In this document: piece after piece, positions 40,373 through 41,413 of the stretch
How positions within the stretch are numbered: the first letter of the stretch is position 1
Layout: each line of letters starts with the position of its first letter
Assembly: GCF_054482595.1 (NCBI RefSeq)
Contig: NZ_CM137008.1
Direction: 5' to 3' (one strand)
Length of the DNA: 64,000 nucleotides
Program-made: the position numbers and the translations under genes
Notes under the pieces: model-generated
What the model was told of the DNA's origin: nothing
The model's input: the letters and a program-made list of their open reading frames with translations, nothing else
Database searches by the model: none

Positions 40373-41413
40373 TTAATTACTCCCTTGCCTGATAATTGTA
40401 ACTCCATTCCCTTTAGCTTTGGGATTATATTTTAGATAGGTGTTATTTGGTGTTCCCAAGTAACTACTGTATTCTTTTTTTCCCATTCCATTCATATAAG
40501 AATTCGTTAAATCTTTGCTTGAAAAATTTAGACTATCATAAACATCATTTTCTTTTGTTACTTTATTTCCTTTATCGTCAGAGTAAAAACCGTGAGTGTG
40601 ATAATCGCCTACTCTCTCTGAACCTTCAGGGCATTTTATATTTCGCAAGTCTACACTATCATTATCATTTGAACTTATCGGATTCATGGGAAAATATTCA
40701 CCTTGCTTCTTACATATTAGTCCACCATATTCTTTAATCTCGTTAATTGATTCTCCATTACACATTGCCAATGCAAATATTCCAATATCATCTATATTTT
40801 TTGATTTAAATTCATATAATCCCAATGGATCCATGCCATTCACCGGGCTCAGCGGATATGTATACAGGTTCCATCCCCCCTTCAGCCCAATCGGATCCTG
40901 AGTGATATACCGCCCCTGCAGCGGGTCATAATAGCGGTGGCGGTTGTAATACAGGCCGGACTCCTCATCATACTGCTGACCCGGCAGGCGGATGAGCTGC
41001 TGCAGCTGGTGCGGGTTCTCTTCATTCAGCAGGTTGCCCCATTCATCGTATTCTGCGCACCATTCTGTAGCCCCTTCCGTGCTGATAAGCGCCAGCGGCA
41101 GGCCGCGATGGTCGCAGTGGTACAGGTGGATTTTTCGCGCCGGCGTGTACACCGGGTCCATCTGGTTTTGCATCTGCTCCACCGTCAGGCCGCACGATGC
41201 CAGCCAGCGGCGACTTTCCTCACTCACCCGGTCAGCCAGGATTTCACTTTCCAGCCGGTCGAGCATCTGCACCAGCACCGGCGGGAACACCACACTGCCA
41301 CCGTCTTCGCCGCCGGACTGCTGAAGCGCATCCGCCAGGCTGCGGCGCTGCGTTTTCGCCAGCTCACCGGTGGCGGTTTCAACCCTGATGAGTGGCGTGA
41401 AGCCAGGGCAAGA
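40373..41413 (-). CDS. Rhs C-terminal fragment: end of Rhs core (…PxxxxDPxGL) fused to a polymorphic C-terminal toxin domain of unassigned type; lacks the N-terminal ~1100 codons
   Basis: Open frame from stop at 41414..41416 reads [32 protein letters not shown]...[40 protein letters not shown]...[21 protein letters not shown]...[45 protein letters not shown] followed by ~150 aa non-conserved tail; track ORF 40373..41293 is the part after an internal GTG. Confidence 0.8.

Follow-up and report, generated by a model that had tools for sequence, protein, structure and literature searches.

The site between yiiX and priA is rhs locus 11 of Escherichia coli, and pseudogene and relic states have been recorded for the rhs loci of this species (Jackson et al., 2009; PMC2935791). 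The intact gene z5488 of EHEC EDL933, which occupies this site, has been named "RhsB" (PMC7216683), a name that clashes with the PGAP labels of the intact allele, "rhsC" or "RHS element core protein" (WP_000014969 is an "rhsC"). The small gene downstream is called dsORF-f3, which implies RhsF, and "RhsF/RhsFI" is in use for another locus, ECs0604 (PMC7618764); in spite of the similar name, the system described in that paper (NAR, 2025) was dismissed as a match because of its locus.

The toxin tip encoded at locus 11 belongs to the DUF4329 family, described in 2012 as Tox-JAB-2 by Zhang et al. (PMC3482391), who suggested nuclease activity by analogy with RadC and paired the toxin with "Imm-NTF2-2 (E. 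coli only; conserved Y, W)". Later papers label the domain "RNase", citing Ma et al. (2017b), whose experiments, as they are described in PMC6730261, concern Rhs-CT1, CT3 and CT5, none of which is DUF4329. According to a 2024 preprint, neither the activity nor the substrate of DUF4329 is known. A search of the full-text literature for an activity assay of DUF4329 or Tox-JAB-2 found none, all of the work found being bioinformatic, and the "RNase" label of the family thus rests on no assay found in the literature.

The element analyzed here lies in a window of 64,000 nucleotides (the whole stretch of DNA under study) and is a pseudogene remnant of a genuine Rhs (YD-repeat) polymorphic toxin. There is little unusual in the feature as such, which is a degenerate copy of an Rhs effector common in E. 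coli; locus and family are both known, and the element is annotated in RefSeq as a pseudogene plus dsORF-f3, catalogued in Pfam and described in two comparative papers. Its value lies in a clean case of toxin loss with immunity retention in a species in which about 40% of strains carry the tip, mostly as a full-length gene. We regard the following overall account as very probable: a locus-11 rhs gene broken by an insertion sequence (IS), a DUF4329/Tox-JAB-2 tip of the JAMM type and dsORF-f3 as its immunity gene; a periplasmic target, and decay of the toxin with the immunity gene kept, are its more conjectural parts. What this analysis adds is that the immunity family is widespread and carries export signals, and that a Cys pair of the toxin covaries. 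Together with an isopeptidase-like fold, the predicted export of the immunity partners and the Cys pair challenge the RNase label and may point to another target for the family.

Architecture of the disrupted locus

The element is flanked by metL-metB-metJ-yiiX on one side and by rpmE-priA-cytR on the other. Read on the minus strand from rpmE to yiiX, it consists of a PAAR-type N-terminus, ISEc1, the end of the Rhs core, the tip, dsORF-f3 and a frameshifted IS1. The 5' remnant (42694..43076, minus strand) encodes the PAAR-type N-terminus, residues 1 to ~128 of a 1394-aa protein (positions 1-131 of the NCBIfam RHS_core model), and is identical to the O157 full-length protein at 128 of 131 residues; DNA homology to the intact allele stops on this side at 42694, the open reading frame running on for 13 codons inside the IS to a stop at 42654.

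Next comes ISEc1 (41404..42693, minus strand), a 1290-bp "H-repeat" element of the ISAs1 family (NF033564 transpos_ISAs1, 417.8 bits against a cutoff of 70), with terminal inverted repeats CAGGG(A/C)AAGAT at both junctions. Its transposase gene (41414-42551, minus strand) has an internal TAG at ~42492-42490, where a related E. coli protein described below (P0003) has Trp, and RefSeq labels it "ISAs1-like element ISEc1 family transposase, internal stop". With this stop the element that disrupted rhs is itself inactive, and the arrangement is frozen.

Beyond the IS lies the 3' remnant of the core (40817..41403, minus strand; residues ~1052-1247, RHS_core positions 1104-1261), with the Rhs-associated core domain (TIGR03696, 83.8 bits against a cutoff of 32.5, on residues 82-159 of the ORF; also Pfam RHS, PF03527), and the core ends, as that of an Rhs protein does, in DPLGL of the self-cleavage motif PxxxxDPxGL, directly before the variable tip. 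The ORF on the minus strand (40373-41293) encodes 306 aa from a GTG, its frame staying open further upstream to the IS junction at ~41403; the range 40373-41413 given to the feature in the earlier note overruns slightly into the IS, because rhs homology starts at 41403. [quoted passage not shown]

Several properties claimed earlier for this ORF were borne out. The end of the Rhs core is followed by a tail (~150 aa in the earlier note) of 147 aa, and the translation of the minus-strand ORF agrees exactly with the peptides quoted there. This tip (40376..40816, minus strand) is also AT-rich as described, the G+C content falling from ~0.61 in the Rhs core to ~0.32 across 40000-40750. The small downstream ORF, taken as a sign of a toxin-immunity pair, is as tightly linked as had been said, with a single base between the toxin stop (TAA, 40375-40373) and the ATG of dsORF-f3 at 40371; a Shine-Dalgarno sequence, AAGGGAG, lies at 40386-40380, and dsORF-f3 appears from this spacing to be translationally coupled to the toxin. 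It is an immunity-type gene (40048..40371, minus strand; RefSeq "RHS element protein dsORF-f3", WP_021557388.1) encoding an intact 107-aa protein, the putative cognate immunity protein of the tip. On the yiiX side the rhs element is bounded by the frameshifted IS1 remnant (39286..39978, plus strand; RefSeq annotation in L001, L002 and L003), which also adjoins the intact alleles and is thus older than the ISEc1 event. Outside the element, in the conserved backbone, yiiX (38533-39141, plus strand) encodes a permuted papain-like enzyme of the YiiX family, described as a peptidoglycan peptidase (PMC2935791).

Intact alleles and origin of the break

At the same site, E. coli O157:H7 strain 8368 and strain EC93 carry one unbroken Rhs gene of 1394 aa, with the same tip, small ORF and IS1 remnant. 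The alignments of protein and DNA place the breakpoints at residues ~128 and ~1052 of the intact protein, so that 2771 bp of the rhs shell (residues ~129-1051, ~920 codons) are replaced by the 1290-bp ISEc1. Downstream of the IS, 339 of 345 residues are identical to residues 1050-1394 of the intact protein. The intact locus-11 proteins (z5488; EC93, WP_106904063; O157, WP_000014969) thus share with the window the site, the IS1 remnant, the tip and the immunity gene, at 98% amino-acid identity across the retained parts. The window differs from them in the loss of residues ~129-1051 to ISEc1 and in an N27I substitution in the toxin domain, and it has no shell and no T6SS spike loading. The fragment is the native tip of the sole rhs gene of this locus after an IS-associated internal deletion.

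This exact broken architecture is found in 170 of 5426 complete E. coli genomes. Full-length Rhs proteins with the same C-terminal tip, which the earlier note had suggested looking for in other genomes, do exist: the tip and the small ORF are present in 2169 of the 5426 (~40%), always on the chromosome, usually once and mostly under full-length annotations.

A JAMM-type toxin tip

The earlier note recognized no characterized domain in the tail, a statement that does not hold, since it matches Pfam DUF4329 (PF14220) at E=6.7e-14 over residues 173-293 of the ORF (40415-40777), has been known as Tox-JAB-2 since 2012 and has a predicted JAB/MPN fold. All of the 52 aligned relatives of the tail match PF14220 as well. 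To Tox-JAB-2/DUF4329 it is likened by the HMM match, the position at the C-terminus of an Rhs protein, the E / H[ST]H / S / D motif and the JAB (deaminase-like alpha+beta) fold. The catalytic codons, all on the minus strand, are those of E29 (40732-40730), H73 (40600-40598), H75 (40594-40592), S99 (40522-40520) and D102 (40513-40511); all five residues are present in the window and are 94-100% conserved across the family. The AlphaFold2 (AF2) model of the tail is confident and its fold matches JAB/MPN structures only, the best matches being isopeptidases. On the basis of motif and model, the tip is predicted to be a zinc hydrolase of the JAB/MPN fold, with Glu as general base, His-x-His and Asp as zinc ligands, and Ser.

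It had also been proposed that the spaced Cys residues and the HxH cluster form a Cys/His hydrolase or a metal site. The residues are indeed there (Cys19, Cys35, Cys62 and H73-T-H75 are all present in the window's tail), and the metal site stands in so far as the HxH would be the zinc site of a JAMM enzyme. The Cys/His hydrolase is rejected: Cys19 is poorly conserved in the family, and Cys35 and Cys62 are absent from 84% of it, while the JAMM residues are invariant. The latter two Cys covary, which suggests a disulfide.

Likeness to the JAMM/MPN+ isopeptidases (BRCC36, Rpn11, AMSH, PfJAMM1, CBASS Cap3, BilC) has its bounds. The tip is only 11-17% identical to them; all JAMM residues are present, but the spacing from HxH to S is 23 residues, compared with the canonical 7-10; and the Pfam models JAB and Prok-JAB are not significant on the tip, Prok-JAB giving weak matches (E<=0.1) in 3 of the 52 relatives. 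In contrast to these enzymes, the tip is that of a secreted antibacterial toxin without a ubiquitin-like partner. PDB sequences were searched with the tail as a single sequence and with profiles of the tail and of the immunity protein, and only spurious weak matches were returned (a kinase, the zinc fingers of BCL11A and others), and NCBIfam has no model for the tail. A lead to phage contexts for the family is given by Zhang et al. (PMC3482391); the PHROGs contain no match for the E. coli tail, for dsORF-f3 or for three typical family members. Outside the Enterobacteriaceae, many DUF4329 toxins are short fusions of PAAR, a Gly-rich linker and DUF4329 without an Rhs shell (for example L010, L013, L015 and L022, and P0053, P0065, P0074, P0090 and P0165), several of them with leaderless immunity partners.

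A widespread family of putative immunity proteins

For dsORF-f3, no match was found in Pfam, NCBIfam, the PHROGs or the PDB; its single-sequence AF2 model has a pLDDT of 38, and a word-indexed search with it returned essentially E. coli copies only. The genes downstream of distant DUF4329 toxins were then collected from five loci by exact-protein look-up and from 36 loci by a one-genome-per-species scan with a 10-sequence alignment as the query, a sample spanning Acidobacteriota, Planctomycetota, Myxococcota, Alpha-, Beta- and Gammaproteobacteria and a spirochaete. The ORFs downstream of the toxins are homologous, BLAST single linkage joining 25 of them and a profile built from these recovering 32, dsORF-f3 included. 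Since homologues of dsORF-f3 lie downstream of DUF4329 across phyla, the family is broad and not confined to E. coli; as a phylum-spanning companion of DUF4329 toxins that is absent from Pfam, it is new in this analysis. It differs in this from the Imm-NTF2-2 partner assigned to Tox-JAB-2 by Zhang et al.: dsORF-f3 has no Trp and no Pfam family, and its relatives span phyla and are mostly exported according to prediction. Imm-NTF2-2 was accordingly rejected as the identity of dsORF-f3, neither this protein nor any of 24 relatives giving a Pfam match.

The dsORF-f3 protein starts with a hydrophobic leader, MKAIQCCYFLALVSSHLMA, followed by GV. This leader aligns with the clear leaders of three relatives (L007, L009 and L026), is weaker than those of its relatives and scores just under the strict hydrophobicity cutoff. 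By the strict heuristic, 20 of the 37 downstream ORFs have a leader; among the remaining ORFs of these loci that reach 100 aa or more, 20 of 241 do (p=3.7e-10). Once curated, the immunity family has 24 of 33 members (~73%) with a predicted Sec or lipoprotein leader and 27% without one; examples are MKFLIFIFMVCTVCNA followed by FG in Salmonella and a leader ending in GVTFAS, followed by C, in a metagenomic Rhs locus. In the alignment the leader is an N-terminal add-on, simply missing from the leaderless members. The conserved core of ~80 aa has an invariant Gly in a G-[LQM]-R-G-S / GGGG loop, and nearly all members end in Arg or Lys. This combination is reminiscent of the ubiquitin LRGG tail bound by JAMM enzymes. 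In L011-L013, the immunity protein occurs in tandem two-domain versions.

In a tree of the toxin domains, E. coli, Enterobacter, Salmonella, Acidovorax and Superficieibacter form one clade, which coincides with that of the Cys pair; its immunity partners (5/5) are all predicted to be exported. The leaderless partners are scattered across at least five branches of the tree.

Site of action of the toxin

From the predicted export of the immunity protein and the likely disulfide of the toxin we infer a periplasmic site of action for the toxin of the E. coli clade, which would cleave an envelope substrate as a metallo(iso)peptidase, a proposal to which we give slightly less than an even chance. 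The periplasm-acting effectors of the T6SS (of the Tae/Tai and Tse1/Tsi1 type) are small cargo amidases or muramidases of other folds. Such pairs resemble the one at locus 11 in the immunity gene directly downstream, whose small product carries a Sec or lipoprotein leader (a putative one at locus 11), implying an envelope target; they differ in that their effectors are not Rhs-encapsulated JAB domains, the envelope target of the tip being a proposal only. Were it true, the tip would be the first JAB-fold toxin of the cell envelope and a rare periplasmic effector encapsulated by Rhs.

Real evidence counts against periplasmic action: 27% of the partners are leaderless, the leader in E. coli is comparatively weak among its relatives, and in a study based on SignalP another, CdiI-like partner of DUF4329 Rhs proteins from Salmonella showed no leader. 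The competing view, that the tip is a nuclease or RNase acting in the cytoplasm, follows the label that the literature gives to DUF4329 and the analogy with JAB domains of the RadC type. We hold it to be unlikely, for the RNase label traces to bioinformatic classification only, the best fold matches are isopeptidases, a covarying Cys pair is present, and predicted export of the immunity protein extends to the whole E. coli clade and ~73% of the family; moreover, the table of Zhang et al. gives Imm65, the partner of Tox-JAB-1, as a lipoprotein (PMC3482391). The toxins' own Sec leaders, found in only 4 of ~109 proteins, are uninformative for an extracytoplasmic role. Given the export signals of the immunity family and the Cys covariation, expression in the periplasm versus the cytoplasm is the most pertinent comparison for the target. 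Taken one step further, the periplasmic reading can be put as a tentative proposal: the tips of E. coli, Salmonella and Enterobacter would be not RNases but periplasmic, disulfide-stabilized JAMM zinc (iso)peptidases delivered by Rhs and the T6SS, and they would be blocked by an uncatalogued exported family whose Gly loop or C-terminal Arg might obstruct the active site in the manner of a ubiquitin tail. The last element, occupation of the active-site groove by the Gly-rich loop or terminal Arg, is pure speculation.

Probable loss of the toxin and retention of immunity

In the intact alleles, the tip would be enclosed in the Rhs shell, freed by self-cleavage at DPLGL and fired by the T6SS on its PAAR tip, dsORF-f3 acting as the immunity factor. 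In the lineage of the window, ISEc1 has taken the place of ~920 YD-repeat shell codons, sparing the PAAR stub, the last ~195 core residues, the tip and the immunity gene. As the shell is gone and the PAAR domain no longer linked to the tip, loading and delivery of the toxin are impossible. The derived codon of N27I (ATT, 40738-40736, minus strand) lies two residues before the catalytic Glu, at a position that is Asn in 95% of the family, and the exact 61-mer around it is rare (16 of 2168 genomes). Asn27 is kept by a sister lineage whose IS breakpoints are the same; the substitution therefore arose after the disruption, which is consistent with decay. Loss of the toxin with retention of immunity is the simplest reading: the toxin would be undeliverable and decaying in this strain, and the intact dsORF-f3 would still protect it against the ~37% of E. 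coli with a working copy.

Two other readings of the remnant have to be weighed against this one. The earlier note saw in it a displaced orphan tip, a cassette that could be joined by recombination to an intact rhs gene at another site. Orphan tips have been described before (PMC2935791), and through the ~590 bp of conserved core still present (40817-41403) homologous recombination with the cores of other clade-I rhs genes is conceivable. An orphan rhs-CT lies, however, downstream of a complete main rhs gene and its immunity gene, whereas the only upstream rhs sequence here is the gene's own 5' end across the IS, its PAAR start standing directly beyond the 1290-bp ISEc1. In the intact rpmE-yiiX alleles, the locus is moreover a single 1394-aa gene ending in the same tip, with no main tip upstream, and genomes usually have one copy of the tip, which is always chromosomal and annotated within a main gene, so that the displaced cassette is given up as highly improbable. 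A little less remote, though still improbable, is continued expression of the remnant, driven by an internal promoter, with a role as a toxin-antitoxin-like pair or a regulator. It has published precedents in the Salmonella orphan Rhs (PMC7043789) and the EHEC RhsFint-RhsFI (PMC7618764), which likewise consist of a truncated Rhs C-terminus and an immunity gene, apart from T6SS delivery; a 306-aa ORF with its self-cleavage module and an intact immunity gene, translationally coupled by all appearances, also survive in the window. These systems belong to other loci (ECs0604 in the case of RhsF/RhsFI) and to other toxin families, and internal promoters have been demonstrated there, whereas at the locus of the window a scan for promoters and terminators gave nothing above shuffle expectation (8 promoter-like sites compared with 7.0 +/- 2.3 in shuffles). 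The N27I substitution near the catalytic Glu likewise speaks against continued use of the toxin.

Other rearranged copies

Several further copies of the pair were encountered. The reverse of the window's state is seen in O157:H7 strain 8368 (L002, 9460-9782), where the toxin gene is intact and dsORF-f3 is flagged as frameshifted by RefSeq, which is odd for a cognate immunity gene; a poly-G tract was considered as the cause of the frameshift and dropped, the tract being identical in the window, O157 and EC93. A contig assigned to a "Lachnospiraceae bacterium" metagenome-assembled genome (MAG) (L035; SFGN01000258.1, 176-920) contains nearly unchanged E. coli sequences of the rhs tip and dsORF-f3, and this copy in a Firmicutes MAG is almost certainly E. 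coli contamination of the bin. Finally, P0003 (E. coli B7C52_12490, 257 aa) consists of the N-terminus of an ISEc1 transposase (MEHISITPDYRQAWKV...; PF13808) fused in frame to the DUF4329 tip, a second and distinct IS-mediated rearrangement of the same tip in another lineage.
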